A stretch of DNA of 64,000 nt from an uncultured Actinomycetota bacterium (GTDB lineage: Bacteria > Actinomycetota > Actinomycetes > Propionibacteriales > Nocardioidaceae), in NCBI GenBank assembly GCA_963784545.1, contig CAWARQ010000002.1, forward strand, positions 571,512-635,511, given 5' to 3'. Below, piece by piece: positions 13,891 to 32,832 of the stretch (its first letter is position 1; each line of letters opens with the position of its first letter). A program made the translations under genes and the position numbers. The notes below the pieces were generated by a model. That model was not told the origin of the DNA, did not search any database, and saw nothing but the letters and a program-made list of their open reading frames with translations.

Positions 13891-13927
13891 GAAGGCAACG
13901 CTAATGAGCGCCACCCGACCTCCCATC

Positions 13928-13972
13928 GGCAAGACTTGTCAGGCGCGCAAGAGGGTGACGGCAGGAGTTGCC
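13928..13972 (-). promoter_or_regulatory. Paired GGCA-N5-TGCC boxes (candidate PucR sites) at the arcC-bar promoter
   Basis: GGCAAGACTTGTC at 13928-13940 and GGCAGGAGTTGCC at 13960-13972 (32 bp apart); proximal box 24 nt from the -10. Confidence 0.65.
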
Positions 13973-14000
13973 AACGGGCCGTTCGGGCGAGACCGCCGCG

Positions 14001-14777
14001 TCAGAACGGGACGGCCACCCGGAGCAGCCCGTCGCCGGTGGCGCGCTGGGACGTGATCCGACAGAACTCGACAGCGTCGAGCCGCAGCTCCTCCGCAGAT
14101 GGATCGCCGAAGCGGCCGCCGGCCGGGCCCTCGAGCACCAGGTCCACCGGTCGGCCGTGCCGTTCCAGCCACTCCCGCGCAACACCGGCGACGACCCAGC
14201 CGTCGTGGTCGGCGGTGAGGAGCGGCTCCGAGCCCAGCGCCCGTGCCACGTCGATCCGGTGCATCCAGGCGTCCCGCGTGAGGATGACGTCCACCAGGTA
14301 GCCGAGGCTCCACCGCTCCTTCGCACCGGGCACCTCCACCGGGAACGTGACCAAGCGCCGCATCGGGCCCGGCGTGTTCCGGCGGCCGCGTGCGGCCGGA
14401 CCCACCATCGAGCCGAGCTCGGCCACCAGCTCCGCGGTGCCGAGAGACGCAGTGCGTTCGACCTGGATCTCGGTCATCACGTCCGTGTCGTTGTCCTCGC
14501 TCCGCCGGGACCGTCGTTTGACCTCGATCTGCTGGCTGGCGAACTCCTTGAGCGAGGCGGCGGCGCGCATGGCGCCGAGCACGTGCCCCGCCATGGTGCG
14601 GACGTCCCACCCCGGGCACTCGGTCGGTGTCTCCCACTGCTCGGGGGTGAGGCCGGCAACCGCGTCCACGAACCGCTGGTAGGCAACCTCGGCCTCGTGC
14701 AGGGCACGCGCGCGGTCGTGGTCGGGTGGCACGAACCGGGTGCCGGGGGTGCGCTGGATCGGGCTGGTGGTGCTCAT
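14001..14777 (-). CDS. Mycothiol-dependent maleylpyruvate isomerase (MDMPI)/DinB-like family protein
   Basis: LTPEQWETPTECPGWDVRTMAGHV and DAWMHRIDV His motifs; 258 aa. Confidence 0.85.
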   Translation of the reverse strand: MSTTSPIQRTPGTRFVPPDHDRARALHEAEVAYQRFVDAVAGLTPEQWETPTECPGWDVRTMAGHVLGAMRAAASLKEFASQQIEVKRRSRRSEDNDTDVMTEIQVERTASLGTAELVAELGSMVGPAARGRRNTPGPMRRLVTFPVEVPGAKERWSLGYLVDVILTRDAWMHRIDVARALGSEPLLTADHDGWVVAGVAREWLERHGRPVDLVLEGPAGGRFGDPSAEELRLDAVEFCRITSQRATGDGLLRVAVPF

Positions 14778-15370
14778 GCGTGCTCCTCGTCGGGCTCGGT
14801 GGTCAGACCGACGTGGTCACAGAACATCGTGACCGCCTCGTCGGCGAGGCTGGACCAGCGATCACCGCTGGGATCGTTGGACATCTGTTGCGCGGCCAGT
14901 CCCGAGATGACCGAGGTCCACAGGTCGTGGTGCCGGGACTCGGTGACGCCGACTCCGGCGAGGGCCTGGTTGGTGAACTCCAAGTTGTCGACGGCCAGGG
15001 CGTAAGACTCCGGCGAGGGCTCGAACCCGGGGACCGCGCGCTGGAACATCAGCAGGTAGCGGGCCGGATCTTCGACGCAGAACTGCAGGAAGGCCCGGGC
15101 TCCCCGCCGCAGTCGAGCCCGGGGTGGACCGGAGTCGTCGAGGCCGCTCAGGACGTGCGCCAGCTGGCGCTGGCCCTGGGCGAACATCAGGTCGTAGATG
15201 CCCTCCTTCGACGCGACGTAGGTGTAGAGGCTGGGCGCACGCATGCCGACCTCGGCGGCCACGTCACGCAGCGAGATCGCGGCCAACCCGCGCTCGCGCG
15301 CGATCGACCATGCGACCTCGAGGATCTGCTGGCGGACGTGGTCCCGTCGGCCTTCGCGTGCGTCTAACAT
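14774..15370 (-). CDS. TetR/AcrR family transcriptional regulator
   Basis: N-terminal HTH ISLRDVAAEVGMRAPSLYTYVASKEG; stop overlaps the MDMPI start. Confidence 0.92.
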   Translation of the reverse strand: MLDAREGRRDHVRQQILEVAWSIARERGLAAISLRDVAAEVGMRAPSLYTYVASKEGIYDLMFAQGQRQLAHVLSGLDDSGPPRARLRRGARAFLQFCVEDPARYLLMFQRAVPGFEPSPESYALAVDNLEFTNQALAGVGVTESRHHDLWTSVISGLAAQQMSNDPSGDRWSSLADEAVTMFCDHVGLTTEPDEEHA

Positions 15371-15406
15371 CGTTAGGATGATCTAACGATGTTAGAGGTT
15401 CGTCAA
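15363..15406 (-). promoter_or_regulatory. TetR promoter with double palindromic operator
   Basis: CTAAC-N3-GTTAG at 15364-15376 and 15383-15395, together forming a perfect 14-bp inverted repeat. Promoter reads TTGACG-N17-GATCAT-N7-ATG. Confidence 0.8.
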
Positions 15407-16078
15407 CCCCCGTGGGCCCCGACCCAGCAGCGCGCGCAAGGGCAGAGTGCCGACGGGCAGGCCGTGCGCGTCGTAGTAGGCGAACATCGCCGACAGCCAG
15501 GGGTGGCTGCGGGGGTCGGGGACCTGGGTGGCGCCGACCCCCGCCTCTGCGGCCAGCTCGGCGACGGTCGCGACCCGGCTGGCGAGCTCGTACGTCGCGC
15601 CGGCGTGCCCGTCCTCGGCCAGCACGACGGTGGCGACCTCGCCGAGGTCGGCCAGGTCGAGGAAGCCGAAGAGGGCGTCGACGGAGTACGGCACCTCGAG
15701 CGGCCGCGACCGGTCGAAGTTCTGCAGGTAGACGCCGGGCTGGAGGATCGTCCAGGCGAGGCCACTGCGCCGCACCAGGTCCTCCGAGGCGGCCTTGCCG
15801 AGGTGGTGCGGCATCTCCGGCACGTACGGCGAGGCCACCGAGTGGTAGACCACCCGATCGACTCCGGCCGCCCGGAGCGCGCCGAGCGCGGCGGCGACGT
15901 AGGTCGGCTCGTCGGGGTGCAGGTTCGGCGCGATGAGGTACGCCGCCTCGCAGCCGCGCAGACCGGCGGCGAGGTCGTCGCGCCGGCCCAGCGGCACCGG
16001 GTCTGTCCCGCGTGCCTCCAGCGCCGAGGACACCGCACGCCCGGTCTTGCCGTGGCCGCCCAGGATCGCGACGCGCAT
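15392..16078 (-). CDS. NmrA-like NAD(P)H-binding protein
   Basis: VAILGGHGKTGR Rossmann motif, TILQPGVYLQN; TGATG-coupled to hydantoinase B. Confidence 0.85.
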   Translation of the reverse strand: MRVAILGGHGKTGRAVSSALEARGTDPVPLGRRDDLAAGLRGCEAAYLIAPNLHPDEPTYVAAALGALRAAGVDRVVYHSVASPYVPEMPHHLGKAASEDLVRRSGLAWTILQPGVYLQNFDRSRPLEVPYSVDALFGFLDLADLGEVATVVLAEDGHAGATYELASRVATVAELAAEAGVGATQVPDPRSHPWLSAMFAYYDAHGLPVGTLPLRALLGRGPRGLTNL

Positions 16079-17994
16079 CAGACCAGGTCGACCTCGGCGT
16101 GGGCGGCACCGTCGGCGAGCGTGGCGTAACCCGGCCCGCGGTCGAACATCGGAGCCTCCGCGCGCGCGGCCGCCAGCTCGCCCCGGCGGGTGGACGTGGC
16201 GTCAAGGTCCACGGCGAGCGAGTCGTCGTCGAGCGAGCCGGTCAGCACGACGCCGTACTGGTCGGAGGCGGCCTCGAGGGAGACCTTGCGCCAGACCACG
16301 TCGCGACACACGAGCGCCGGGTCGCGTTCAAGAGGGTCCCCCCAGCCGCCGCCACCGGTGGTCCGGATCCGGATCAGCTCTCCGGCCTTCACCGGCTCCG
16401 CGTCGGCCAGCGCGTCGACCTCGCGCTCGTGCGGCCCACCCGGGTCGACGGTCACCTGGAACGGAGAGCCCGCGAGGCCGCCCTTGACCCCCCAGCACGC
16501 CAGGATCGACCGGTCGGCGATCGACATGAAGTGGGCGTCCTTGAGCATCCGGATCTGCTTCTCGTAGCCCAGCCCGCCGCGGAACTTGCCCGCCCCACCG
16601 GAGTCGACCGCCAACGACAGCGATTCGACGAGGAACGGGAACCGCGACTCGGTGAACTCGCTCGGCAGGTTCCGCGAGTCCGGGACGACGTGGATGGTGT
16701 CCTCGCCGTCGGCGTAGTAGCGGCCACCGGAGCCGCCGCCGAGCACCTCCCGCATGAGGTAGGGCCGGCCCTCGCGGTCCTCGCCGTACACACCGGTGTA
16801 GCGGATCGTCTCCTGGTCCGCCGGCATCTTGCCGTCGACCGCCTTCGCGACGACACCGGCGAGGACGCCGAGCAGTCGCAGGATCACGAACGTGCGGGCG
16901 TTGGTCGGCGCCGGGAAGACCGGCGTGATCAGCGTCCCGGGCTCCGGGAAGCGCATCTCGATCAGCGGCACGATCCCCTCGTTGACGTCGAGCTCGGCCA
17001 TCCGCTCCGGCGACTCCGCCAGGTTGCGCAGGATCGGTGCCAGCCACTTCTTGAGGAAGACCCCGTCGGAGTAGTCGCCGCAGTGGTTGATCGGCCCCTT
17101 GGCCTGCGGGCCGGTGCCGTCGAAGTCGAGGACCAGCCGCTCACCGTCGGGGTCGTCGGCGGCCGTCCGGGTCAGGGTGATCCGCTGCGTGTGCAGCCGC
17201 GGCTCGTCGACGCCGTCGTGCTCGGCGTAGTCCTCCCAGGTCCAGGTCCCGACCGGGATCACCGACAGGATCTCGCGGCGGTACGTCGTGGTGGTGCGGT
17301 CGAGGATGGCGTCGAAGCAGGACTCCACGACCTCGACGCCGTACCGGTCGAACATCTCCCCCAGCCGGCGCGCGCCCATGAGGCAGGCGCTGCACTCGGC
17401 GTCCAGGTCGGCCGCCAGCGACTCGGGCATCCGGGAGTTGCGGGTCATGATCGCCAGCGCCGACCGGTTGGGGACGCCGGCGTCCCACAGCTTGATCGGC
17501 GGGACCATCAGCCCCTCCTCGAAGACGCTGGTCGCCTGGCTCGGCATGGAGCCGGGGACCGCGCCGCCGATGTCGTCGTGGTGGCCGAACGCCTGGACGA
17601 ACGCGACCACCCTGCCCGCGGAGAGGACAGGGACAGTCACGCAGAGGTCCGGGAGATGGCCGATGCCGCCCTCGGAGCGGTAGACGTCGTTGTGGAAGAA
17701 GACGTCGCCCTCCCTCATCTCCGCCAACGGGAAGTCGCGCGCGACCGGGTGGACGAGAGCGGAGTACGACCGACCGGTCAGCTTGCGCAACAGCCGGTCG
17801 TGGATGCCCGCACGGAAGTCGTGGGCGTCGCGGATCATCGGGCTTCGGCTGGTGCGCGCGATCGCGGTCTCGACCTCCATCTCGACGCTCGCCAGAGTGC
17901 CCTGGACGATCTCGACCAGCACCGGGTCGGCGCCCGCGCCGGCATCGTCGGTGAGGAAGCCGTACGGGAACTGGGTGGGTGCGCGCCTGCTCAT
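16078..17994 (-). CDS. Hydantoinase B/5-oxoprolinase family subunit
   Basis: RTSRSPMIRDAHDF, GGIGHLPD, GHHDDIGGAVPGSM, SIADRS, IRTTGGGGWGDPLERD. Start set to ATG 17994. Confidence 0.92.
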   Translation of the reverse strand: MSRRAPTQFPYGFLTDDAGAGADPVLVEIVQGTLASVEMEVETAIARTSRSPMIRDAHDFRAGIHDRLLRKLTGRSYSALVHPVARDFPLAEMREGDVFFHNDVYRSEGGIGHLPDLCVTVPVLSAGRVVAFVQAFGHHDDIGGAVPGSMPSQATSVFEEGLMVPPIKLWDAGVPNRSALAIMTRNSRMPESLAADLDAECSACLMGARRLGEMFDRYGVEVVESCFDAILDRTTTTYRREILSVIPVGTWTWEDYAEHDGVDEPRLHTQRITLTRTAADDPDGERLVLDFDGTGPQAKGPINHCGDYSDGVFLKKWLAPILRNLAESPERMAELDVNEGIVPLIEMRFPEPGTLITPVFPAPTNARTFVILRLLGVLAGVVAKAVDGKMPADQETIRYTGVYGEDREGRPYLMREVLGGGSGGRYYADGEDTIHVVPDSRNLPSEFTESRFPFLVESLSLAVDSGGAGKFRGGLGYEKQIRMLKDAHFMSIADRSILACWGVKGGLAGSPFQVTVDPGGPHEREVDALADAEPVKAGELIRIRTTGGGGWGDPLERDPALVCRDVVWRKVSLEAASDQYGVVLTGSLDDDSLAVDLDATSTRRGELAAARAEAPMFDRGPGYATLADGAAHAEVDLV

Positions 17995-18148
17995 GAGGCC
18001 ACCTCGCGAGGACACGAGCGAAGCGAGGCCCGGAGGGAGGTGTGCCGAATGGGCGATTCAATCCGGCTCATGAGGCCACCTCGCGAGGACACGAGCGCAG
18101 CGAGGCCCGGAGTGGGGTGTGCCGAATGGGCGATTCAGAACTGCTCAT
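17991..18148 (-). mobile_element. Two tandem 77-bp elements, each encoding a 26-aa mini-ORF, between hydantoinase A and B
   Basis: Units 17991-18067 and 18068-18144 are near-identical. Mini-ORFs are 18068-18148 (MSSSESPIRHTPLRASLRSCPREVAS) and 17991-18071 (MSRIESPIRHTSLRASLRSCPREVAS). ATGA overlaps occur at 18145-18148, 18068-18071 and 17991-17994. Confidence 0.8.
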
Positions 18149-20271
18149 TGCCCTGCCTCCGTGCGGGGGTTTCGAGACGCTCGCTGCGCTCGCTCCTCAA
18201 CCACCGACGACCTCCGGACGATCAGGTTGCGGTAGTCGTCGACGGTCGCGGTGAAGCCGGGGTGGATCGGCACGGTGGACCCGAACTCCTCGACGATCGC
18301 CGGACCGGGGACGACGGACCCAGGCCCCAGGTCGGGGCGCCACAGCAGCGGCGTCTCGACATACCCGTCGGTGGCGTCGAAGCAGACCTGGCGGGTGCCT
18401 CGCTCCGTCGGGTCGGGGGTTGCGCCGCCTGGCTCGGACCTACGGATCTCCGGGCGCTGGATCGGGCCGATGCCGCTGACCCGGAGGTTCACCCACTCGA
18501 CCTGCTGGCTCGGGTCGGTGGCGAAGTCGTAGCCGTAGAGCGCGCGGTGCTCGGTGTGGAAGGTGTCCGCGACCGCGGTCAGCGCCGCTGCGTCCAGGTC
18601 GCCGGCCGGCACCGGCACCCGGACCTCGAAGGCCTGGCCGAAGTAGCGAAGGTCGGCGGTGCGCTCGAAGACGTGCGCATCACCGGGGAATCCCTCCTTG
18701 TCCAGGGCGATCCGGGCCTGGTCGGTGAGCTCGGCGTACACGGCGTCGACCTCTCCCGCGTCCAGCGACTCCGCGAGCGCGACGTGGGTCTGGACGTAGT
18801 CGTTCTTCACGTCGACCGTGAGCAGCCCGAAGGCGGACACGTTGCCGGGGTCCGGTGGCACGAGGACCGTCGGGATGCCGAGGATGTCCATCAGCCGGCA
18901 CAGCAACAACGAACCGGAGCCGCCGAAGGTGGTGAGCGTGAAGTCCCGGACGTCGAGGCCGCGCTTGACGGTGACCTGCCGCAGGGCGTTGGCCTGGTTC
19001 CACGCCGAGATTTCCAGGACGCCGGCCGCGGCCGCCTCGGGGCTCAGCCCGAGCTGCGCGGCGAGAGCCGTCACGCCGCTCTTCGCCGCCTCGGCGTCGA
19101 GAGGGATCTCGCCCCCGAGCAGGTGCGGCGGGATGCGGCCGAGGAAGAGGTGCGCGTCGGTGATGGTGACGTCGCTCCCGCCCTTGGCGTAGCAGAGCGG
19201 ACCTGGGTCCGCGCCCGCGCTCTGCGGCCCGACCTTGAGCGTGCCCTCGGGGCTCAGCCACGCGATCGAGCCGCCGCCCGCGCCGACCGTGACGACGTCG
19301 ATCATCGGGATCTTGCTGGGGAACGCGCCGACGCTCCCCTCGGTCGTGAGCGTCGGGTTGCCGTCGATCACCACGCTGACGTCGGTCGAGGTTCCTCCGC
19401 CGTCGCTGGTCAGCACCCGGTCGAAGCCGGCGACCTTCGCGATCAGCGCGGCACCCAGGGCTCCGGCCGCCGGTCCCGACAGCACCGTGGTGATCGGCTG
19501 GTGCACGACCTCGTCGGCGGAGAGGACGCCGCCGTTGGACTTCATCACGTAGAACGGCAGCGAGCGCTGGGCGTTGTCGGCCAGCCGGCTCTTGATGTTG
19601 TTGACGTACGCCGAGAGCCGAGGCTTGACCGCGGCATCGACCAGCGTCGTCATCGCGCGCTCGTACTCGCGGTACTCGCGCAGCACCTCGCTGGAGATCG
19701 AGACGACCGCGTCCGGGTGCTCCTCGCTGAGGATGACCCGCATCCGCTCCTCGTGCGCGGGGTTGGCGTAGGCGTGCAGGAAGCAGACGCCGAGGGTGTT
19801 GATCCCCTGGTCCTTGAACCAGCGCGCAGCCGTGCGCGCCAACTCCTCGTCGAACGGCCGGACCTCGGCGCCGGTGAAGTCCAGGCGGCCGCCGACCTCC
19901 TTGACCAGGTGTCGCGGGACGATCCGGTCGGGCTTGACCCAGAAGTAGGAGTTGCCGTACCCGTCGGGCACCGACTGGCGAGCGATCTCCAGCATCGCGC
20001 CGTAGCCCTCGGTGGTGAGGTAGCCGAGCGCTTCGACCTTGCCCTCGAGCAGCTGGTTGGTGGCCACGGTCGTGCCGTGGGAGACGGCGGTGACGGCGTC
20101 GTACTCGGCGCCGATGAGGTCCAGCACCTTGTCGATCCCGGCCAGGAACCCGTCGGCGGGGTTGCTCGGGGTGGACGGCGTCTTGGTCGTGACGACCCGG
20201 CCGGAGTCCTCCTCGAAGGCGACGACGTCGGTGAACGTGCCCCCGGTGTCGATCCCGATCCTGATCCGCAT
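18145..20271 (-). CDS. Hydantoinase A/5-oxoprolinase family ATP-binding subunit
   Basis: IGIDTGGTFTD, HGTTVATN, SGPAAG, DGGGTSTDV, GAGGGSIA, GPQSAGADPGP; 708 aa. Confidence 0.93.
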   Translation of the reverse strand: MRIRIGIDTGGTFTDVVAFEEDSGRVVTTKTPSTPSNPADGFLAGIDKVLDLIGAEYDAVTAVSHGTTVATNQLLEGKVEALGYLTTEGYGAMLEIARQSVPDGYGNSYFWVKPDRIVPRHLVKEVGGRLDFTGAEVRPFDEELARTAARWFKDQGINTLGVCFLHAYANPAHEERMRVILSEEHPDAVVSISSEVLREYREYERAMTTLVDAAVKPRLSAYVNNIKSRLADNAQRSLPFYVMKSNGGVLSADEVVHQPITTVLSGPAAGALGAALIAKVAGFDRVLTSDGGGTSTDVSVVIDGNPTLTTEGSVGAFPSKIPMIDVVTVGAGGGSIAWLSPEGTLKVGPQSAGADPGPLCYAKGGSDVTITDAHLFLGRIPPHLLGGEIPLDAEAAKSGVTALAAQLGLSPEAAAAGVLEISAWNQANALRQVTVKRGLDVRDFTLTTFGGSGSLLLCRLMDILGIPTVLVPPDPGNVSAFGLLTVDVKNDYVQTHVALAESLDAGEVDAVYAELTDQARIALDKEGFPGDAHVFERTADLRYFGQAFEVRVPVPAGDLDAAALTAVADTFHTEHRALYGYDFATDPSQQVEWVNLRVSGIGPIQRPEIRRSEPGGATPDPTERGTRQVCFDATDGYVETPLLWRPDLGPGSVVPGPAIVEEFGSTVPIHPGFTATVDDYRNLIVRRSSVVEERAQRASRNPRTEAGQ

Positions 20272-20278
20272 GACCGCA

Positions 20279-20354
20279 ATTGTCCCGGCCAGCCGACGCC
20301 CCCGGCTAAGGCATCATCTGCCGACGGATGGGCGATCCGTTGTCATCTCCTGCC
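20279..20354 (-). promoter_or_regulatory. Hydantoinase operon promoter with paired GGCA-N5-TGCC boxes
   Basis: GGCATCATCTGCC at 20310-20322 and GTCATCTCCTGCC at 20342-20354 (32 bp apart). GACAAT -10 (20279-20284) is 25 nt from the proximal box and 7 nt from the ATG. Confidence 0.65.
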
Positions 20355-20365: not shown

Positions 20366-20437
20366 GGGTAACGGTAGTTGCTGGACGCTCCCGGCCCCGT
20401 ATACGCCCCCGGGAGCGTCAACCTGATGGCGTTACCC
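20366..20437 (-). terminator. Long imperfect hairpin at the MarR gene 3' end (probable terminator)
   Basis: Inner stem GACGCTCCCGG/CCGGGAGCGTC (20384-20394 and 20409-20419); outer stem GGGTAACG/CGTTACCC. Confidence 0.5.
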
Positions 20438-23567: not shown

Positions 23568-23984
23568 TCACCGGCTGTGGAGCACGGACTGGTCCACCGC
23601 GGCCACGGCCTCGACCTCGACGAGCTGTCCCTCGTAGCCGAGGAGCGGGACGGCGACCAGGGTGCTCGGGGCGTCGTGGTCTCCGAACGCGGCCCGGACG
23701 ACCTGCCAGGCGGTGACCAGGTCGTCCCGGTCGTCGGTGGCGACGTACACCGTGGACTTGGCGACGTCGGTGAGCGTGGCACCGGTCGCGGCGAGCGCCT
23801 GCTCCAGGTTGCGCATGACCAGGGCGGCCTGCCCGGCCAGGTCGCCGAGCGGTGTCACTTCGCCGTTCTCGTCCAGCGGGCAGGCGCCGGCGGTGAACAC
23901 CAGGGACCCCTGGGCCACGACGGCGGCGTAGGCGTAGGGCACCTCGTCGGAGAGTGCCTCGGACCGGATCAGCTCGACAGGCAT
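23568..23984 (-). CDS. RidA/YjgF/YER057c family protein
   Basis: VFTAGACP, DVAKSTVYV, STLVAVPLL...LVEVEAVA; TAGCGT -10 is 6 nt upstream and overlaps the amidase stop. Confidence 0.88.
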   Translation of the reverse strand: MPVELIRSEALSDEVPYAYAAVVAQGSLVFTAGACPLDENGEVTPLGDLAGQAALVMRNLEQALAATGATLTDVAKSTVYVATDDRDDLVTAWQVVRAAFGDHDAPSTLVAVPLLGYEGQLVEVEAVAAVDQSVLHSR

Positions 23985-23993
23985 GCGCCGACG

Positions 23994-25373: not shown

Positions 25374-25383
25374 GCGGCCGTCG

Positions 25384-25475
25384 GTTTCCCCGCCTGGGCG
25401 GGGAAACTGGCACTTGTAGGCCGTTGCAACCCCCTCCCAGTGCAGGTTTCCCCGCCCAGGCGGGGAAACCTGCAC
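25384..25475. repeat. Inverted REP-like palindrome doublet between coxG-like gene and amidase
   Basis: GTTTCCCCGCC-TG-GGCGGGGAAAC (25384-25407) and GTGCAGGTTTCCCCGCC-CA-GGCGGGGAAACCTGCAC (25440-25475). Confidence 0.85.
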
Positions 25476-25479
25476 GCGC

Positions 25480-26103
25480 TCACCTCCGCCGCCCGAGCAG
25501 CGCGCCGGCGACCACGCCCGCCAGCACCAGCCCGGCTCCGACGGCGATGCCCTTGACGAAGTCCGACTGCGAGGTGACCCGGCCCGGGGTGGCGGCGGGA
25601 TCGACGTACACCTTGGGCATCCCCGGCTCCGCGCTCTCGACCGAGGCGGCGCCCGCCTCCGCGGTCGGCGAGAGGATCGCGCGTTCGACGTTGGCGAAGA
25701 ACTCGCCCGCCATCCGCTTCGAGACGCTGGACAGCATCCGCTGACCGACCCCGCCGATCATGCCGCCCACGACAGCGTCGGCGTCGTACGACACCGAGGT
25801 GCCACCGTCGCCCGGGGCGAACGAGACGTTGACCGTCGCGCCGATGGTGCCGGGCGCACCGGCACCGTCGAGCTTCATCACCAGCGACTGGTGCTGCTGG
25901 AGGTCCGCGAGGGCGCACGAGCCGGAGTAGGTGCCCTTGATCGCGGCGACGCCGGCAGTGACGGTCATCGCGTAGGAGTTCTCGCCCGTCTCCTCCAGCC
26001 GCTCGCAGCCGGGGATGGTCCGCACGAGGACGGCGGGGTCGAGCAGGGCGTCCCACACCTGCTCGACGGGCGCCTGGAGGGTGTTCTGGCCGGTGAACCT
26101 CAT
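25480..26103 (-). CDS. CoxG-like SRPBCC accessory protein with C-terminal membrane anchor
   Basis: MRFTGQNTLQAPVEQVWDALLDPAVLVRTIPGCE, VGGMIGGVGQRML; ATGA-coupled to the large subunit. Confidence 0.88.
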   Translation of the reverse strand: MRFTGQNTLQAPVEQVWDALLDPAVLVRTIPGCERLEETGENSYAMTVTAGVAAIKGTYSGSCALADLQQHQSLVMKLDGAGAPGTIGATVNVSFAPGDGGTSVSYDADAVVGGMIGGVGQRMLSSVSKRMAGEFFANVERAILSPTAEAGAASVESAEPGMPKVYVDPAATPGRVTSQSDFVKGIAVGAGLVLAGVVAGALLGRRR

Positions 26104-28478
26104 GGGGTGTGCTCCTGTCGAAGGTGGAACAGCTCGGACGGCGAGATCGGCATCGCCGTGATCGGGAAGCCCTCGGCGTCCTCGATCGCGGCGGCGAAGA
26201 CGGCCGCCGACGGGATGACTCCGGCCTCGCCCGCCCCCTTGATGCCGAGCGGGTTCAGCGGGGACGGCGTCTCGAGGTGGTCGATCTCGATCGAGGTGGG
26301 CACCTCGGTGACGTAGGGCATGAGGAAGTCCATGAAGGAGGCGTTGAGCAGCTGTCCGGACTCGTCGTAGGCCATCCGCTCGTACAGGGCGCCGCCGACG
26401 CCTTGCGCCACTCCGCCGTGGATCTGCCCCTCGACGATCATCGGGTTGATCAGGTGGCCGCAGTCGTGGACCACGGCGTACTTGAGGATCTTCACCTCGG
26501 CGGTCTCCGGGTCGGTCTCGACGATCACCGCGTGCATGCCGGAGGCGAAGGTCGAACGCTCGGGCGAGTGGAAGTCCTTGCCCTCCAGGCCGGGCTCCTC
26601 GCCGCGCGCGATGGGTGGCTTGCCCGGGTCGCCGACGGAGAACTGGGTGGCCGCCTTGGAGGCCTCGTCGAAGGCGTAGCGCAGCGGGTTGGACAGGACG
26701 GCGATGGTGCCGAGGTCGATGGAGGCGTCCGTGCCCTTGACGCTCACGACCCCGTCGTTGATCTCCAGGTCGCTCTCGTCGGCCTCGAGCGCCTCGGCCG
26801 CGATCCGCAGTGCCTTCTCGCGGGTCCGCAGGGCGGCGAGGTGGATCGCCGAGCCGCTCATGACGGCCGCACGCGAGGCGAAGGTGCCCACGGCGTACGG
26901 CATCTTGCGGGTGTCGCCGGTGGTGATCTCGACGTCCTCGAACCTCACGCCGAGGGCGTCGGCGACGATCTGCGCGAAGGCGGTCTGGTGCCCCTGCCCC
27001 TGGGTCGTGAGGCCGGTCGCGACCTTGACCTTGCCCGAGGTCTCGACGTGCACGTGCGCGCCCTCGTACGGACCGACGCCGGTGCCCTCGACGTAGCAGG
27101 CGAGCCCGATGCCGAGGCGTCGCCCCTCCTTCGCTGCGGCCGCCTTCAGGGCGGGGAACTCGTCCCACCCGACCAGCGCCTTGAGCTTGTCCAGGGACGC
27201 CGGGTAGTCGCCGGAGTCGTACTCGAGCTCGCGACCGTCCTGGAAGATCAGGCCGTGGTCGTAGGGGAATTCGTCGGGCTGGATGAAGTTCGCCGACCGG
27301 ACCTCCGTGCGGTCCTTGCCGAGGTAGGCGGCGATCGCGTCCATGGTGCGCTCCATGACGAAGCAGCCCTGCGGCCGCCCCGCGCCGCGGTAGGGCGTGA
27401 CCATCACCGTGTTGGTGTACAGGCTCTCGAAGACGACGCGGTAGTTGTCCGGCTTGTACGGGCCGAGCAGCTGGGTGGAGGTGATGATCGGCACGATCAG
27501 CCCGTACGGCGTGTAGGCGCCGTGGTCGTGCCAGAACTCGACGTTCAGGCCGAGCAGCCGGCCGTCGTCGTCGAACCCGACGTCCACGTGGTGCTCCTGG
27601 GCGCGCTCGTGCGCTGAGGAGATGAAGTGCTCGCGGCGGTCCTCGGTGAACTTCACCGGGACGCCCAACGTGCGGGCCGCCAGGGGGACCAGCAGCTCCT
27701 CGGGCCAGGGGTGGTTGATCTTCACCCCGAAGCCGCCACCGACGTCGGGGGTGATCACGTCGACCTGGGCGAGGTCGAGCTGGAGCTTGGCCGCGACGCA
27801 CCCGCGGACACCGGTGGAGGTCTGAGTGGACGACCACACCGTGAGCCGCGAGGTGTCGGGGTCCCAGCGGGCGACGACGCCGCGGCCCTCCATCGGGGTG
27901 CAGGCGGAGCGCTCGATGTCCAGGTCGAGCGAGAGCGTGTGCGGTGCGCTGGCGATCGCCGCGCGAGCGTCGCCGTTCTCCTGCTCCAGGCGGGCGCCGA
28001 CGTTGTCGGGTACGTCCTCGTGCACGGCGTTCTTCGCGGCGCGGGCTGCGGGGATGCCCACCACGACGGGCAGGGACTCGTAGGAGACGCGGATCTTCGA
28101 GACGGCGTCCTCGGCGAGGTAGCGGTCCTCGGCGACGACGAACGCGATCGCCTCGCCGACGTAGTTCACCTCGCCGTCGGCCAGCGCGTACTGCGTCCGC
28201 CCCTGCGTCAGGGCGGGGTGCGGGATCAGCAGCGGCAGCGGCTCGGCCATCGGGCCGGACAGGTCGTCGATCGTCCACACCAGGTGCACGCCGTCGACGT
28301 CGAGCACGTCGCTGACGTCGATGTCGGTGATCCGAGCGTGCGCGTGCGGCGACCGGAGGACGGCTGCGTGCAGGACCTTCTGACCGACCAGGACGTCGTC
28401 GACGTAGCGGCCCTGGCCGCGGACGAACCGCTGGTCCTCGACCCGGGGCACCTTGGTCCCGAACAGCTTGGTGGTCAT
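26100..28478 (-). CDS. Molybdenum hydroxylase large subunit (XDH/CoxL family; candidate uracil/thymine dehydrogenase)
   Basis: LRSPHAHA, DVGGGFGVK, PYRGAGRP, QGQGHQTAFAQ, GQIHGGVAQGVG, GIKGAGE; ATG 28478. Confidence 0.9.
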   Translation of the reverse strand: MTTKLFGTKVPRVEDQRFVRGQGRYVDDVLVGQKVLHAAVLRSPHAHARITDIDVSDVLDVDGVHLVWTIDDLSGPMAEPLPLLIPHPALTQGRTQYALADGEVNYVGEAIAFVVAEDRYLAEDAVSKIRVSYESLPVVVGIPAARAAKNAVHEDVPDNVGARLEQENGDARAAIASAPHTLSLDLDIERSACTPMEGRGVVARWDPDTSRLTVWSSTQTSTGVRGCVAAKLQLDLAQVDVITPDVGGGFGVKINHPWPEELLVPLAARTLGVPVKFTEDRREHFISSAHERAQEHHVDVGFDDDGRLLGLNVEFWHDHGAYTPYGLIVPIITSTQLLGPYKPDNYRVVFESLYTNTVMVTPYRGAGRPQGCFVMERTMDAIAAYLGKDRTEVRSANFIQPDEFPYDHGLIFQDGRELEYDSGDYPASLDKLKALVGWDEFPALKAAAAKEGRRLGIGLACYVEGTGVGPYEGAHVHVETSGKVKVATGLTTQGQGHQTAFAQIVADALGVRFEDVEITTGDTRKMPYAVGTFASRAAVMSGSAIHLAALRTREKALRIAAEALEADESDLEINDGVVSVKGTDASIDLGTIAVLSNPLRYAFDEASKAATQFSVGDPGKPPIARGEEPGLEGKDFHSPERSTFASGMHAVIVETDPETAEVKILKYAVVHDCGHLINPMIVEGQIHGGVAQGVGGALYERMAYDESGQLLNASFMDFLMPYVTEVPTSIEIDHLETPSPLNPLGIKGAGEAGVIPSAAVFAAAIEDAEGFPITAMPISPSELFHLRQEHTP

Positions 28479-28954
28479 CGTCCGAGCTCCGCGGCGCGCA
28501 GCACGGACTTCACGATGTTCTGGTAGCCGGTGCAGCGGCACAAGTTCCCGGCGATCATCTCCCGCGCCTCGTCCTCGGTCGGGTCGGGGTTCTCCTCGAG
28601 CCCGGCGGTGATCGTGGTGAGGAACCCGGGCGTGCAGAAGCCGCACTGCAGACCGTGGCAGTCGCGGAACGCCTGCTGCACCGGGCTCAGGGTGCCGTCG
28701 GCGTCGGCGAGCCCCTCGACGGTGGTGATCGCAGCACCCTCGGCCGAGACGGCCAGCATCAGGCACGAGCGCATCGGCCTGCCGTCGACCAGCACCGTGC
28801 AGGCACCGCAGACACCGTGCTCGCACCCCACGTGGGTGCCGGTCAGGCCGCAGTCGTGCCGCAGGGCGTCGGAGAGCAGCCGACGGCCGGGCACCTCGAC
28901 CACGTGGGTCGCGCCGTTGACCTCCAGCCGGACCTCGTGCAGCTCCTCAGACAC
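28475..28954 (-). CDS. Molybdenum hydroxylase small [2Fe-2S] subunit (CoxS-like)
   Basis: GCEHGVCGACTV, QCGFCTPG, NLCRCTGY. Confidence 0.93.
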   Translation of the reverse strand: MSEELHEVRLEVNGATHVVEVPGRRLLSDALRHDCGLTGTHVGCEHGVCGACTVLVDGRPMRSCLMLAVSAEGAAITTVEGLADADGTLSPVQQAFRDCHGLQCGFCTPGFLTTITAGLEENPDPTEDEAREMIAGNLCRCTGYQNIVKSVLRAAELGR

Positions 28955-29798
28955 TCCGCTCCCCTCTCCGGGACATCTCCTGGGCGCGCGCCAGCACGCG
29001 CTCGGTCAGCACGCGCACCAGGTGGGCGCGGTAGTCGGCGGTGGCGTGGATGTCGTCGACGGGTTCGAGCACGGCCAGGGCCGCAGACGCCGGGTCGTCG
29101 TCGCCGGTCACGTCCACCACCGTGGGGACGTCGCTGACCGAGAGGTAGCCGAGCCGCGTGCGCTCGGGCGTCACGTGCGCTGCGACGCCGACGAGGGCGT
29201 AGTCGCCGTGTCGCCGGGCGATCTCCTCGAAGGCGACGCCGCTGCCGGCCGCCAGCGCCGGGACGTACGCCGACACCGCGAGCTCGTCGGCCGCGAGGGT
29301 CGACTCGAGCGGGCCGGCGTACAGCTCCGCGGCCGGGATCGTCCGGGAGCCGCGGACCGAGGTCACGTCCACCGAGCCGCCCAGCAGCGAGAGCACCATC
29401 GGCATCTCGGCCGCAGCGTCGGCGTGGACGATCGAGCCGACCGTGGTCCCGCGGTTGCGGATCGTCGGGTGCGCGACGTGCGAGAGCGCCATCCGCAGCA
29501 GGGGCTGCACCTCGGCCGCGCCGTCGTGGGCCAGCAGGTCCGCGTGCCGCACGAGGGCGCCGAACCGGACGCCGGCCCCAGCCCCCGACGGGGTCACCTC
29601 GACGGCGTCGAGGCCAGGCACCCGGTTGACGTCGACGACCACGTCCGGCGCCGCCAGTCGCATCGAGAGCAGCGGGACCAGGCTCTGGCCGCCGGCCAGC
29701 ACCTTCGCGCTGCCGCCCCCCTCAGCACTGCCGGCCAGGGTCTCCAACGCCTCCTGGAGAGTGCCTGGCCGGCGGTAGCTGAAGGGTGCTGGCTTCAC
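28947..29798 (-). CDS. Molybdenum hydroxylase FAD subunit (CoxM-like)
   Basis: KPAPFSYRRP, VLAGGQSLVPLLSMRLA, IRNRGTTVGS, ARRHGDYA. Confidence 0.93.
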   Translation of the reverse strand: MKPAPFSYRRPGTLQEALETLAGSAEGGGSAKVLAGGQSLVPLLSMRLAAPDVVVDVNRVPGLDAVEVTPSGAGAGVRFGALVRHADLLAHDGAAEVQPLLRMALSHVAHPTIRNRGTTVGSIVHADAAAEMPMVLSLLGGSVDVTSVRGSRTIPAAELYAGPLESTLAADELAVSAYVPALAAGSGVAFEEIARRHGDYALVGVAAHVTPERTRLGYLSVSDVPTVVDVTGDDDPASAALAVLEPVDDIHATADYRAHLVRVLTERVLARAQEMSRRGERSV

Positions 29799-29813
29799 TG
29801 TTCCCTGGGTGTC

Positions 29814-31313
29814 CTAGTCCTGCCGGTGGGTTCCCGGGGTCCCCGAGGTCCCCGTCGTGCCTGTGGTCCCCGTGGTACCGGTGGTGCCCATCGTGCCCGG
29901 GGTCTGGGAATCGGCGCCCTCGGGGCCGACGGTCATCGCCCCGGCCTCGAGGTCCGTGCCCGCGCTGCGCGCGACCATCCGGGCGACGTGGTAGCCCACG
30001 ACGATGATCAAGGTACCCATCGCGATGCCGCCCAGCGGGAAGTCGCTCGTGATGTTGAAGAAGGAGTTGTCGCTCAGGCCGATGCCCATGGTCAGGCCCG
30101 CGGCGACCGGCACCAGGTTGACCGGGTTGGCGAAGTTGACGCCGTTCTCCACCCAGATCTTGGCGCCGAGCAGGCCGATCATCCCGTAGAGCACCAGAGT
30201 GATGCCGCCGAGCACGCCACTCGGCGTGGTGGCCACCAGCGCCCCGAACTTCGGGATGAAGCCGAAGAAGATCGCGACGATCGCCGCGACGAAGTACGCC
30301 GCCGTCGAGTAGACCCGAGTGGCCGCCATGACGCCGATGTTCTCGGCGTACGTCGTGGTGGGCGAGCCACCGACGAACGAGGCCAGCGTCGTGCCGACAC
30401 CGTCAGCGGCGACCGCCTTGCCCATGACCGGGTCGAGGTTGCGACCGGTCATGCCCGAGACCGCCTTGACGTGACCCATGTTCTCCGCCACCAGCGCGAT
30501 CACGGCCGGCAGGGCGAGCAGGGTGAAGGTGATCGAGAGGCTCGGCAGGTGCCAGCCGACCAGGTCGTAGTGCGTGCCACCGGAGAAGGGGCTCTGGTTG
30601 CCCACCAGCCCGTCAGCGGTGTGCGGTGGGAAGCCGAACCAGTCGGCGCTCTTGACGTTGTCCCAGTTCACCCGGTCACCGTCCACGCCGCCGACGCCGA
30701 TCGCGTCGAACAGGAGGGACAGCACGAAGCCGAAGATCAGGCCGAGGAAGATCGCGATGCGGCCGAAGAAGCCGCGCAGCCCGACGGCCATGAGGATGAC
30801 CGCGAACATCGTGATGAGGGCGACCCAGCGGTCGGCCGGCATGTAGATGCCGGTGGCGACCCGGCAGAGGTTGAAGCCGATCAGCATGACGACGGCGCCG
30901 GTGACCACCGGGGGCAGCAGTCCGTTGACGAAGCCGGGGCCGGCGAAGTGGATCGCGACACCGACCAGCGCCAGCACGATGCCGGAGACCATGATCGCGC
31001 CGGTGACGTCGGAGGGGCCGCCGCCCTGGGCATAGATCGCGGCCGCGCCGCCGACGAAGGACGCCGACGTGCCGAGGTAGCTCGGCACCGTGCCCTTGAC
31101 GATGAGCAGGAAGCAGATCGTCGCGATACCGCTCATCATGATCGCCAGGTTGGCGTTCAGGCCCATCACGATCGGGAACACGAAGGTCGCACCGAACATC
31201 GCGACGACGTGCTGGGCGCCGAGCCCGACGGTCTTGCCCCACGCCAGTCTCTCGTCCGGGGCCACCGCCTGACCAGGTGCGGGATCGACTTCCCGCCAGG
31301 TGAACATCGACAT
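29814..31313 (-). CDS. NCS2 family nucleobase permease (UraA/PbuX-like)
   Basis: LGAQHVVAMFGAT, PSYLGTSASF, PPVVTG, ENMGH, TTYAENIG; GGAGGA SD before ATG 31313; 499 aa. Confidence 0.92.
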   Translation of the reverse strand: MSMFTWREVDPAPGQAVAPDERLAWGKTVGLGAQHVVAMFGATFVFPIVMGLNANLAIMMSGIATICFLLIVKGTVPSYLGTSASFVGGAAAIYAQGGGPSDVTGAIMVSGIVLALVGVAIHFAGPGFVNGLLPPVVTGAVVMLIGFNLCRVATGIYMPADRWVALITMFAVILMAVGLRGFFGRIAIFLGLIFGFVLSLLFDAIGVGGVDGDRVNWDNVKSADWFGFPPHTADGLVGNQSPFSGGTHYDLVGWHLPSLSITFTLLALPAVIALVAENMGHVKAVSGMTGRNLDPVMGKAVAADGVGTTLASFVGGSPTTTYAENIGVMAATRVYSTAAYFVAAIVAIFFGFIPKFGALVATTPSGVLGGITLVLYGMIGLLGAKIWVENGVNFANPVNLVPVAAGLTMGIGLSDNSFFNITSDFPLGGIAMGTLIIVVGYHVARMVARSAGTDLEAGAMTVGPEGADSQTPGTMGTTGTTGTTGTTGTSGTPGTHRQD

Positions 31314-31340
31314 GGTTCCTCCACTCGTTAAGGGCCCCGA

Positions 31341-31424
31341 GCGCCACAAGTTAGTGGCGCCCATCACACACCCTCGACGGCGAGAAATGCCGAAGGAACG
31401 CCGTCGGCACTGGCAGAGGTTGCG
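31341..31424 (-). promoter_or_regulatory. Permease-coxMSLG operon promoter with paired GGCA-N5-TGCC-like boxes
   Basis: GGCGAGAAATGCC at 31379-31391 and GGCAGAGGTTGCG at 31412-31424 (33 bp apart). TAACTT -10 (31348-31353) is 25 nt from the proximal box. Confidence 0.6.
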
Positions 31425-31471
31425 GCGGTCCAGACCGGTCCGGAGCGTGCGAAAGCCCCCGGAACGGGGTC

Positions 31472-32740
31472 CTAGCCGCCGATCTCGAGCACCCGGAGGG
31501 CGACCGCGACGTCGAGTCGCAGGTCCGGGTCGGTGGAGACCGGACCGAGCAGCCGCTCGAGCTTGCCGAGGCGGTAGCGCATCGTGTTGTAGTGGAAGAA
31601 CTGCAGCCGCGCCGCCTCGGCGACGTTGAAATTGGTGTCCAGCAGCCGCTGCAGCGTTTCCCGCAGGCTCGCCGCCTCCTCGGTGGCTTCGGCCAGCGGC
31701 CCGAGCACGTCGTGGGTGAACGACTCCAGCTCGGCCCGCTCCGGCACCAGGGCGATGAGCCGATGGACACCGAGCTGGTCGAAGTGGGTGGTGGACCCCG
31801 GGCCGCGGATCCGCCGGCCGGTGCTCACGGCGCGCTCGGCCTGCGCGAAGGCGTCGGGGAGGTCGGCCACGGACGACGCGACCCGGCTCACCCCGACGCT
31901 GAAGCTCCGCCGGCCGCCGCCCTTGTCGCCGGTGACGGCGCGGACGGCGCGGGTCACCACCTGCGCGCCCGGCGGGCCCGATGCCCCCGTCTCGTCGACC
32001 GGCAGCAAGGTGACGACCTCGTTGCCGAAGTCGACCGAGGGGCTCGCCGGCGCCTGCTGCTCGGTGACCATCCGCCAGGCCGCCGCGAAGCGCTCCTGCC
32101 ACTGTCGCCCCCGCGCCTGGGCGGGCGGCTCGCTCTTGCCGGCGGGATCGAGCTCGGCGACGACCACGACCAGCGGCCGGCGCAGGTCCCAGCCGAAGCC
32201 GGCCGCATGCTCGGCGACGTACGCCGGATCGCCGGCCCGGCGCAGGAACACGTCGCGCAGGAAGTCCCCGCGGTACTTGTTCTCGACCGCGTTGACCGCG
32301 TCCTGCCGGGTGATGACGAGGGCGCCGACGATGGCGGCCCGCTCCAGGGCCTGGACGTCCTCCTCGGTGATCTCGCCGTCCTCGCGGTAGGCGACCAGGC
32401 GGGCGAGGTCGGTGCCGCCGGCGACCACGCGGAGGGTCCGCACCCAGCCGGTCCCGGACGGGCCGGGGACCTGGACGCCCTGGCCGCCGAGCCGCTCGAC
32501 CCGGAGTCGCCCGGAGGACTCGATCACCTCGGCCTCCGTCAGCTGGGCCCGCTGCGCGTCGCTCAGGTGGGCGCCCCGCTCCCTGCCGTCGGTGGAGGTG
32601 AAGGCGGCGCCCAGGTCGAGGACCTCCGCCACCTCGCGCGCGATCACTCCCAGGTCACCTCCCTCGAGGACGATGCCGGTGAGCCCGATGTGCAGCGCGT
32701 CGCTCCGGGCGAGCCCGGCAGCGTGTCCACGCGCAGCCAT
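31472..32740 (-). CDS. PucR/CdaR family transcriptional regulator
   Basis: C-terminal HTH LRETLQRLLDTNFNVAEAARLQFFHYNTMRYRLGKLERLLG; GGDEF-like core; AGGAGG SD before ATG 32740. Confidence 0.9.
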   Translation of the reverse strand: MAARGHAAGLARSDALHIGLTGIVLEGGDLGVIAREVAEVLDLGAAFTSTDGRERGAHLSDAQRAQLTEAEVIESSGRLRVERLGGQGVQVPGPSGTGWVRTLRVVAGGTDLARLVAYREDGEITEEDVQALERAAIVGALVITRQDAVNAVENKYRGDFLRDVFLRRAGDPAYVAEHAAGFGWDLRRPLVVVVAELDPAGKSEPPAQARGRQWQERFAAAWRMVTEQQAPASPSVDFGNEVVTLLPVDETGASGPPGAQVVTRAVRAVTGDKGGGRRSFSVGVSRVASSVADLPDAFAQAERAVSTGRRIRGPGSTTHFDQLGVHRLIALVPERAELESFTHDVLGPLAEATEEAASLRETLQRLLDTNFNVAEAARLQFFHYNTMRYRLGKLERLLGPVSTDPDLRLDVAVALRVLEIGG

Positions 32741-32755
32741 GAGGGCCTCCTGACT

Positions 32756-32832
32756 ATCAACTCTTGAGTGCGACCACCGAGGGTCGTTGGCAAGACCTCA
32801 CATCGAACATACCCAACTCGGGTCGTTAGCGT
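32756..32832 (+). promoter_or_regulatory. DUF2877-fdrA-DUF1116 promoter with degenerate paired boxes
   Basis: GGCAAGACCTCAC at 32789-32801 is 25 nt before TAGCGT -10 (32827-32832). A degenerate ATCAACTCTTGAG lies 33 bp upstream. Confidence 0.55.

Follow-up and report, generated by a model that had tools for sequence, protein, structure and literature searches.

Four promoters of a Nocardioides gene cluster for nitrogen-heterocycle breakdown share a pair of 13-bp inverted repeats whose positions are fixed. The box motif is a genuine cis-regulatory element and most likely represents the operator of the PucR-type regulator encoded in the same cluster. Because conservation of the repeats extends through the genus and relatives without pucR have none of them, a four-promoter PucR regulon is a well-supported prediction. 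We put the probability at about three in four that the eight boxes are the PucR operators of the cluster and that PucR activates the four units through the paired dyads.

The cluster and its probable regulator

The window is the whole stretch of DNA that was analysed, 64,000 nucleotides long, and all coordinates refer to it. The operon behind promoter P1 (11784..13890, minus strand) encodes carbamate kinase (arcC, 12913-13890) and an AtzD/TrzD ring-opening amidohydrolase (11784-12998), as assigned with Pfam and NCBIfam. The P2 operon (14001..20271, minus strand) encodes hydantoinase/oxoprolinase A (hyuA, 18145-20271) and B (16078-18015), assigned by Pfam and synteny, with co-directional downstream genes for NmrA-like (15392-16078), TetR (14774-15370), and MDMPI (14001-14777) proteins identified by Pfam. 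The P3 operon (23568..31313, minus strand), whose gene order is kept in syntenic relatives, comprises by Pfam a xanthine/uracil-family permease (29814-31313), the FAD (28947-29798), 2Fe-2S (28475-28954), and large (26100-28826) subunits of a Mo-hydroxylase, a CoxG-like protein (25480-26100), an amidase (23994-25475), and RidA (23568-23984). On the plus strand, the P4 operon (32839..36448) encodes AllH-like (32839-33654), FdrA/AllF-like CoA-ligase-fold (to 35057), and AllG-like (35054-36448) proteins, assigned through Pfam AllH, Ligase_CoA, and AllG. A MarR-like protein (20432-21259) is also encoded within the region. The genes between the operons had been regarded as unrelated, which is only partly right, as one of them, an acyltransferase, has syntenic counterparts in many relatives. 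The AtzD/TrzD enzyme scores above the NCBIfam cut-off for cyanuric acid amidohydrolase, and given this score the case for uracil, barbiturate, and ureidomalonate as PucR effectors is weaker than had been implied.

The pucR gene (31472..32740, minus strand) lies divergently from allH at a distance of 98 bp, in agreement with the predicted divergent position at one of the four promoters, and 71 of 80 loci retain this arrangement. Its product has a central GGDEF-like domain (GGDEF_2, PF17853; residues 172-306, 58.8 bits against a cut-off of 24.5) and a C-terminal HTH_30 (PF13556; residues 359-417, 59.9 bits against a cut-off of 27). The GGDEF-like domain occurs in about half of the PucR-type family. 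At E <= 0.001, the Pfam matches of the protein did not include the N-terminal PucR domain (PF07905), and residues 1-170 gave no domain. The PucR-type family is defined by this N-terminal domain in PMC7652997; MabR and other accepted members also have different N-termini (PMC11617747). The protein weakly matches the C-terminal structure of M. tuberculosis MabR/Rv2242 (9f80, E = 1e-4). Orthologs of PucR, found in 18 of 36 congeners, are only 55-69% identical, and the helix-turn-helix residues are invariant among 9 of them. Apart from PucR, no regulator is retained in the syntenic cluster of relatives, where the TetR, MarR-like, and MDMPI proteins had no match.

Paired dyads at four promoters

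Direct reading of the sequence confirmed the positions, box sequences, gaps, and offsets given in the original prediction. At P1, the proximal box (GACAAGTCTTGCC in transcription orientation; 13928-13940, minus strand) is centred at about -44 and the distal box (GGCAACTCCTGCC; 13960-13972, minus strand) at about -77. The -10 hexamer TAGCGT (13898-13903, minus strand) lies 7 nt before the arcC ATG at 13890, so placed that the promoter is presumably leaderless. Orthologous promoters have TAGGTT, TAGCGT, or TAGTTT at the same place and TGGCAAC-N3-TGCCAG as the distal box. P2 likewise appears leaderless, its hexamer GACAAT (20279-20284, minus strand) standing 7 nt before the hyuA ATG at 20271, compared with TTGAAT at 6-7 nt in orthologs. 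Its proximal box is GGCAGATGATGCC (20310-20322, minus strand; orthologs GTCGGCA-N5-TGCCgTcG) and its distal box GGCAGGAGATGAC (20342-20354, minus strand; orthologs ..CA-N5-TG(A/C)C then AACG), both in transcription orientation. P3 has the proximal box GGCATTTCTCGCC (31379-31391, minus strand; orthologs TTCGGCA-N4-TCGCCGtcG) and the distal box CGCAACCTCTGCC (31412-31424, minus strand; orthologs caCAAc-N3-TGCCAg), again in transcription orientation. Its hexamer TAACTT (31348-31353, minus strand; orthologs CACTA..TTG) is followed by 34 nt, including a GGAGGA Shine-Dalgarno sequence, up to the ATG at 31313.

At P4, on the plus strand, the proximal box GGCAAGACCTCAC (32789-32801; orthologs TTGGCAcAACCTCACAT) precedes a TAGCGT hexamer (32827-32832) located 6 nt before the allH ATG at 32839, a probably leaderless layout, and TAGCGT stands at the 24-25-nt gap in 66 of 71 orthologous allH promoters. 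The distal box TCAACTCTTGAGT (32756-32768) is the variant TATCAAC-N3-TTG. The stated consensus GGCA-N5-TGCC does not describe this box, which matches only one of the eight specified positions and is instead a conserved variant (tTaTCAAcactTGc in 71 orthologous promoters). Since the P4 distal box covers the positions 16-28 nt ahead of the pucR ATG, pucR expression is probably affected too, and with both P4 sites over the pucR upstream region, autoregulation is likely.

The consensus GGCA-N5-TGCC extends to T-GGCA-N5-TGCC-A, and averaging the eight site classes with equal weight gives ggCA..a..TGcC. This mean motif has a dyad correlation of 0.95 in register, which falls to about 0 once shifted, bearing out the claim that one motif is common to the four promoters. 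From P1 to P4, the gaps between proximal box and -10 hexamer are 24, 25, 25, and 25 nt, and the proximal-to-distal offsets are 32, 32, 33, and 33 bp. Such spacing corresponds to approximately three helical turns and therefore places both sites on the same face of the DNA. As the proximal site ends 24-25 nt upstream of TANNNT, its centre falls near -44, the usual place of a -35 element, and the distal site has its centre near -77. The boxes cover about -83 to -38, with starts taken from the -10 hexamers and the leaderless layout rather than mapped, and no box overlaps a -10 hexamer or presumed start. No sigma-70-type -35/-10 pair was found at P3 or P4, which says little because high-GC actinobacterial promoters often have no recognisable -35.

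Rarity in the genome and co-occurrence with pucR

Enrichment over background turned out to reside in the paired geometry and not in the literal pattern, which alone was not enriched in the window (3 exact matches against 1.9 expected). With up to 2 mismatches, the pattern occurs once per 132 bp, and pairs at this tolerance are found at the expected number (410 against 359). If each box is allowed one mismatch at most and the distance is 32/33 bp, the genome contains 10 pairs where 2.5 would be expected, and 3 of these fall within this 18-kb stretch. We scored all pairs spaced 31-34 bp in the 3.1-Mb genome with a weight matrix whose training set consisted of orthologous sites from other genomes only, and the four promoters took ranks 1, 2, 3, and 5. 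When each promoter class was left out of training in turn, the arcC and hyuA pairs kept first and second rank, the allH pair came 7th, and the permease pair was weak at rank 183 of 3.1 million positions. Among single sites, the P4 proximal box is the best in the genome and the P1 distal box the third best, the latter with the arcC class left out. The genome-wide search for further sites, as originally proposed, returned essentially only these four pairs, making the motif near-exclusive to these promoters.

Conservation at orthologous promoters, which the original prediction had demanded, was found in the form of a fixed geometry. The spacers drift across 80 PucR loci, drawn from Nocardioides, Marmoricola, and a single Pseudonocardia, while boxes, box spacing, and a gap of 24-25 nt to TANNNT are kept. 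In other genomes, all 132 promoters analysed (71 allH and 61 permease) show this gap together with a box spacing of 31-33 bp; the spacing is 33 bp in 60 of the 61 permease promoters. For the best-scoring pair, 52 of 74 allH promoters have a spacing of 32 bp and 57 of 65 permease promoters one of 33 bp. With a matrix built from allH and permease sites only, the 99.9th background percentile was exceeded in pucR-bearing genomes by 9 of 10 promoters of hyuA and by 4 of 8 of arcC. In Pseudonocardia acidicola, which belongs to another order, the regulator is likewise accompanied by these boxes.

Motif and pucR occur jointly and are lacking jointly, which lends indirect support to PucR binding. Five congeners have the complete cluster but for pucR, which is missing from precisely its place between allH and the permease gene, and a sixth, on a fragmented contig, is likewise without a pucR ortholog. 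No box pair was found in any of these six genomes, nor, for the five with the whole cluster, within 40 kb, and the allH and permease matrix placed none of 11 of their promoters above even the 95th percentile. In their homologous permease promoter, 21 nt at the P3 proximal box are replaced and the -10 region differs too, meaning that these promoters were rebuilt and not merely relieved. The flanks CGGCGTTCC and GGGTGTGTGATG of the permease promoter are conserved even without pucR, and so another factor may act there. At hyuA and arcC, these genomes have retained the -10 hexamers and the leaderless layout of the promoters but no boxes. In three of the hyuA promoters, all of one lineage, TGC immediately precedes the hexamer and might act as an extended -10 in compensation. 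The HyuB tree did not resolve the history of the five genomes, grouping three together and leaving two unplaced, and the joint absence of pucR and boxes may represent as few as one evolutionary event. By the measures used for regulons in comparative genomics, the motif stands at several operons, is orthologously conserved, is rare elsewhere, and co-occurs with PucR.

Proposed activation, its alternatives, and known PucR-type systems

An activator fits the site positions and the precedent of the family. An oligomeric PucR would most likely occupy both dyads at each promoter and recruit or stabilise RNA polymerase at promoters without a -35 match. It would thereby co-induce carbamate kinase and the ring-opening amidohydrolase, hydantoinase A/B, the permease with the Mo-hydroxylase and amidase, and the AllH/FdrA/AllG carbamoyltransferase-like genes.

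PucR could instead act at the boxes mainly as a repressor, or in a dual manner, with an effector relieving repression of four intrinsically active promoters. The box-free hyuA and arcC promoters of pucR-less relatives look as they would after loss of a repressor and its operators, for which this model gives a simpler account than an essential activator, and the allH distal box just upstream of the pucR start would suit negative autoregulation. B. subtilis PucR is both activator and repressor, as stated in PMC7652997. We nevertheless consider this model unlikely, as all boxes lie from about -38 upstream, other characterised PucR-type members are mostly activators (PMC7652997, PMC13599513), the pucR-less permease promoters were rebuilt, and three hyuA promoters gained a TG-type extended -10.

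The boxes might also be real operators of another transcription factor, either global or encoded elsewhere, next to which PucR stands by coincidence. The TetR and MarR-like genes of the region and the conserved flanks of the permease promoter speak for such a factor. However, the TetR and MarR-like proteins are without counterparts in the syntenic clusters of box-bearing relatives, a global factor should have many sites where the scan found essentially four pairs, and the boxes vanish exactly where pucR is missing and travel with it into Pseudonocardia, making this account quite improbable. Chance similarity in GC-rich DNA would agree with the unremarkable counts of exact and two-mismatch matches, and TTGGCA resembles TTGACA, as in the -35 element of an alternative sigma factor. 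The tests of conservation and ranking already contradict both of these readings, which seem very improbable: three promoters ranked 1 to 7 under cross-validation, conservation over about 80 genomes is specific to the boxes, and the sites are dyad-symmetric and lost together with pucR. As a -35 element, moreover, the box would have too long a gap of 24-25 nt to the -10 and a second copy 32-33 bp upstream.

The preferred activator model has a close parallel in GabR of C. glutamicum, which activates gabTDP and whose gene is divergent from its target. This PucR-type protein forms octamers and binds a pair of inverted repeats located from -87 to -23, both of which are needed for strong binding (PMC7652997). 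Both are actinobacterial PucR-type regulators whose gene shares an intergenic region with a divergent target operon, and the predicted footprint of two dyads per promoter, about -83 to -38, falls inside that of GabR. In contrast, GabR has no GGDEF-like domain, its repeats are 21 bp long instead of 13 bp and differ in sequence, it is local to one operon where PucR here is predicted to serve four promoters, and its binding was shown by EMSA where that of PucR is predicted. Bacillus subtilis PucR governs a regulon for purine catabolism (Beier et al. 2002, cited after PMC7652997). It resembles the present case in controlling several operons that serve the catabolism of nitrogen heterocycles, with a permease and a Mo-hydroxylase among their products, but it also represses some targets, and pathway and phylum differ. 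Its box is reportedly a non-palindromic consensus, WWWCNTTGGTTAA, unlike the dyad-symmetric motif here, and a search of the window for this consensus, with as many as 2 mismatches allowed, found nothing.

The GGDEF-like and C-terminal HTH_30 architecture is shared with Rhodococcus IppR (PMC13599513) and M. tuberculosis MabR/Rv2242 (PMC11617747) and with B. subtilis AdeR and PutR/PrcR; sequence similarity to PucR is confined to the helix-turn-helix region. Each of the four recognises a sequence unrelated to the box, and a four-promoter regulon of fixed-geometry paired dyads is reported for none. IppR binds a single 24-bp motif, and its GGDEF-like domain is a proposed effector pocket (PMC13599513). 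Most of the four bind inverted repeats in front of operons for catabolism or biosynthesis, most of them are activators, and most characterised PucR-type proteins are activators binding inverted repeats (PMC7652997; PMC13599513). The predicted PucR regulon is of a known kind.

Gene content and the paired boxes

The genes of the window (GC content 71.7%; host genome 3.1 Mb, assigned to Nocardioides from its relatives) were mapped using Pfam and NCBIfam. The minus strand encodes an AtzD/TrzD ring-opening amidohydrolase (11784-12998), a carbamate kinase (arcC, 12913-13890), an MDMPI protein (14001-14777), a TetR regulator (14774-15370), an NmrA-like protein (15392-16078) and the hydantoinase/oxoprolinase subunits B (16078-18015) and A (hyuA, 18145-20271). 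On the same strand lie genes for a MarR-like protein (20432-21259), a peptidoglycan-binding protein and an acyltransferase (22462-23403), together spanning 20432-23403, and those for RidA, an amidase, a CoxG-like protein, the large, 2Fe-2S and FAD subunits of a Mo-hydroxylase and a xanthine/uracil-family permease (23568-31313). The gene for the PucR-type regulator (pucR, 31472-32740, minus strand) is divergent from the AllH-, FdrA- and AllG-like genes on the plus strand (32839-36448). [quoted passage not shown] Many relatives' clusters (L021-L044) have a syntenic counterpart of the acyltransferase gene, which lies between the amidase gene and hyuA and may be part of the system rather than an unrelated insert; the peptidoglycan-binding gene has a match in only one relative's cluster (L044).

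The AtzD/TrzD enzyme had been labelled a barbiturase. Because it scored 467 bits on the NCBIfam cyanuric acid amidohydrolase equivalog model, above the cut-off of 360, this label is insecure, and the substrate of the pathway could be a pyrimidine or an s-triazine-like ring. Uracil and barbiturate as inducers are thus guesses.

The original prediction united the arcC, hyuA, permease and allH promoters by a proximal and a distal 13-bp dyad at each, described as GGCA-N5-TGCC. On reading the sequence, we found all eight boxes and the four -10 hexamers where they had been placed, with gaps of 24, 25, 25 and 25 nt from proximal box to hexamer and offsets of 32, 32, 33 and 33 bp between the boxes, in the above promoter order. 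The only discrepancy is the distal allH box, TCAACTCTTGAGT, which matches the description at one of eight specified positions. No further intergenic box sites were found within the window. At arcC, hyuA and allH, the -10 hexamer lies 6-7 nt ahead of the start codon, a distance suggestive of leaderless transcription. The permease gene is preceded by a leader that includes a GGAGGA Shine-Dalgarno sequence.

Signal above chance and conservation among relatives

Exact GGCA-N5-TGCC matches are not enriched in the window (three versus 1.9 expected), a site with up to two mismatches occurs every 132 bp, and across the genome, pairs allowing up to two mismatches in each box are about as frequent as chance predicts. 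Only the stricter pairs, the weight matrices and conservation give significance. Restricting pairs to 32/33-bp spacing and at most one mismatch in each box leaves 10 in the genome versus 2.5 expected, three of them at the arcC, hyuA and permease promoters. We trained a weight matrix on the orthologous promoters of other genomes, including no site of this genome, and scanned the full 3.1-Mb genome for pairs with 31-34 bp spacing; the four promoters ranked 1, 2, 3 and 5. Both results place the motif at this spacing beyond background. When each promoter class was dropped in turn, leaving the training set without a homologue of the tested promoter, the pair ranks among 3.1 million positions were 1 for arcC, 2 for hyuA, 7 for allH and 183 for the permease, the weakest pair of the four. 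These ranks indicate that four non-homologous promoters have a common motif.

The genome-wide search for more sites, suggested along with the original prediction, returned the four known pairs and no convincing additional member. Rank 4 in the pair scan is a single long inverted repeat with 15-bp arms (CTGGCAGAAATTGTC ... GACAATTCCTGCCGG) at C4:141479-141530, upstream of an imuB/dinB-like gene that adjoins a dnaE2-like gene; despite its pair-like score, it looks like a single hairpin or the operator of another system, and we rejected it as a box pair. Outside the window on contig C2, the genome's second-best single match is a near-perfect dyad (TGGGCAACTTTTGCCAT, 789416-789432) between the genes for an M20-type amidohydrolase and an ABC substrate-binding protein. 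It has no partner box and is unconvincing as a regulon member; it may be an additional target of PucR or a chance similarity. Two sites near ftsK and pgsA-like genes (C2:168331 and C2:170003) are likewise unconvincing. So is C3:59331-59410, where three weak GGCA-N5-TGCC-like boxes 33 bp apart, the last complete one 23 nt from a TACGTT hexamer, precede a leaderless aldo/keto reductase gene and score under the weight-matrix threshold.

PucR orthologs (55-69% identical) are present in 18 of 36 sampled congeneric genomes. Another 80 loci, from Nocardioides, Marmoricola and one Pseudonocardia acidicola, also contain an ortholog, and in 71 of them the order allH-pucR-permease is kept with allH divergent. 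At such identities, neutral intergenic sequence is expected to be scrambled. The boxes are nevertheless conserved amid variable spacers. Distal and proximal consensus sequences are tTaTCAAcactTGc and TTGGCAcAACCTCACAT for allH, caCAAc...TGCCAg and TCGGCA..tgTCGCCGT for the permease, ..Ca..accTGaC-AACG and GTCGGCA-N5-TGCC-gTcG for hyuA, and ggCAAcactTGCC and GGccg.a.tTGcC for arcC. Their equal-weight mean over the eight site classes, ggCA..a..TGcC, recovers the predicted consensus, and its dyad symmetry gives a correlation of 0.95 in register and about 0 at a shift of 1-2 nt. The predicted geometry also proved to be tightly kept. Of 74 allH promoters, 52 have their best pair at 32-bp spacing, and 57 of 65 permease promoters have theirs at 33 bp. 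A TANNNT hexamer follows the proximal box by 24-25 nt in all 132 promoters analysed (71/71 allH, 61/61 permease); it reads TAGCGT at 66 of the 71 upstream of allH.

In most Nocardioides allH promoters (L051-L130), a third block, CATCGGCAAACCGTAA, is strongly conserved between proximal box and -10 hexamer; the window's own allH promoter lacks it and has ATCGAACATACCCAAC instead. The pucR-allH intergenic region of L011 has tandem 15-bp repeats of the type GGGC(C/T)G(A/G)TCGAC; in L004 and L094, about 60 bp of this region, including the -10 stretch, are duplicated in tandem. Downstream of pucR in L016 (genome G009), a unit of about 38 bp is repeated in tandem in at least five copies.

Relatives without pucR

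Of the regulator genes in the cluster, pucR alone is conserved in synteny, and its helix-turn-helix recognition region is invariant across nine orthologs. The window's TetR, MarR-like and MDMPI genes have no counterpart in the examined relatives' clusters that keep the boxes, for which reason we rejected the TetR (14774-15370) and MarR-like (20432-21259) proteins as the cognate factor. The ring-opening amidohydrolase occurs in 24 of the 36 congeners versus 18 for pucR, and six genomes have hyuAB, arcC and the amidohydrolase without a pucR ortholog. In five of these (loci L138-L142 of G012, G034, G035, G029 and G010), the rest of the cluster was recovered and is complete, comprising allG-fdrA-allH, the divergent permease, Mo-hydroxylase and amidase genes and, at a greater distance, hyuAB, arcC and the amidohydrolase gene; the pucR gap lies exactly between allH and the permease gene.

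No box pair was found in any of the six pucR-less genomes (40 kb scanned in five, 20 kb in the sixth). With a matrix trained on allH and permease sites only, nine of 10 hyuA and four of eight arcC promoters from pucR-bearing genomes exceeded the 99.9th background percentile, those below it having one box or being fused into an upstream operon; in the pucR-less genomes, none of 11 promoters exceeded the 95th. The pucR-less permease promoter retains the flanks CGGCGTTCC and GGGTGTGTGATG, which may serve another factor, around 21 different nucleotides at the position of the proximal box. The Pseudonocardia locus has both the regulator and the boxes. Since the HyuB tree cannot separate one from up to three origins of the pucR-less state, the co-absence of pucR and boxes may be a single event.

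Direction of control and implications

Assuming a transcription start 6-8 nt past the -10 hexamer, the proximal dyad would be centred near -44, covering about -50 to -38, and the distal dyad near -77, covering about -83 to -71. They are three helical turns apart, placing them on the same DNA face, and the -10 hexamers and presumed starts are free of box overlap at all sites. A consensus scan found no sigma-70-type -35/-10 pair at the permease or allH promoter, which is weak evidence in DNA of about 71% GC. The boxes do not fit sigma-54 or ECF-sigma promoters in half-site spacing or distance to the -10 hexamer, and a second copy lies upstream.

GabR of C. glutamicum, a PucR-type activator whose gene is divergent from its target, is an octamer; its two inverted-repeat targets lie between -87 and -23, and it binds strongly only when both are present (PMC7652997). 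The layout predicted here from the -10 hexamers resembles it, with two dyads at every promoter and a divergent regulator gene. [quoted passage not shown] Considering this likeness and the mostly activating family, we favour a model in which oligomeric PucR would occupy both dyads at each promoter and activate all four upon a pathway intermediate, and would probably also regulate its own gene via the shared pucR-allH region. The predicted PucR might instead act as a repressor or in a dual role, a possible reading under which it is simple that the pucR-less hyuA and arcC promoters retain their -10 elements without boxes. It accounts less readily for the pucR-less permease promoter, changed in its core, and for the TG-type extended -10 of three pucR-less promoters, all from one lineage. 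In these hyuA promoters (L131, L132 and L135), TGC immediately precedes TTGAAT, where pucR-bearing hyuA promoters have GGA, CGG or CGC, and might compensate for activator loss in the three genomes.

The motif appears unrelated to the B. subtilis PucR box, whose consensus has no match in the window. To our knowledge, binding sites are known for only a few regulators of the PucR family. In the papers searched, we found no account of how this cluster is regulated, no PucR operator from Nocardioides, nothing relevant on PucR with barbiturase, hydantoinase or Nocardioides, and for no PucR-family regulator a multi-promoter regulon with fixed two-dyad geometry. The system is a new, computationally well-supported example of a predicted cluster-situated PucR-type regulator with paired inverted-repeat operators, unusual mainly in its four promoters with rigid geometry and its natural pucR-less variants. 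General principles of regulation are unchanged by this finding.

Taken as one claim, to which we tentatively assign about one chance in three, the regulator and all eight predicted operators would form one evolutionary unit, and the cluster of about 25 kb would exist in two wiring states within one genus: one with pucR and paired dyads at four promoters, the other with pucR cleanly absent, every box gone and some core promoter elements altered. The same claim holds that the cluster may encode an undescribed nitrogen-heterocycle pathway (pyrimidine or s-triazine-like) harvesting ATP via an AllFGH-type carbamoyltransferase and carbamate kinase, and that oligomeric PucR may stand in place of a -35 element at leaderless promoters.

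If true, the two wiring states would be a natural experiment in the gain or loss of a whole regulon. With eight natural variants of the predicted operator, each in about 80 orthologous versions, and natural pucR-less hosts, this case is a ready system for studying how the PucR family recognizes DNA and contacts RNA polymerase. The shared predicted operator is sequence evidence, independent of gene order, for placing four units in one pathway, namely permease/Mo-hydroxylase/amidase, hydantoinase A/B, AllH/FdrA/AllG, and the carbamate kinase and AtzD/TrzD amidohydrolase pair. It should help the functional assignment of several poorly annotated enzymes, such as the Mo-hydroxylase large subunit, which NCBIfam labels 'CO dehydrogenase'.
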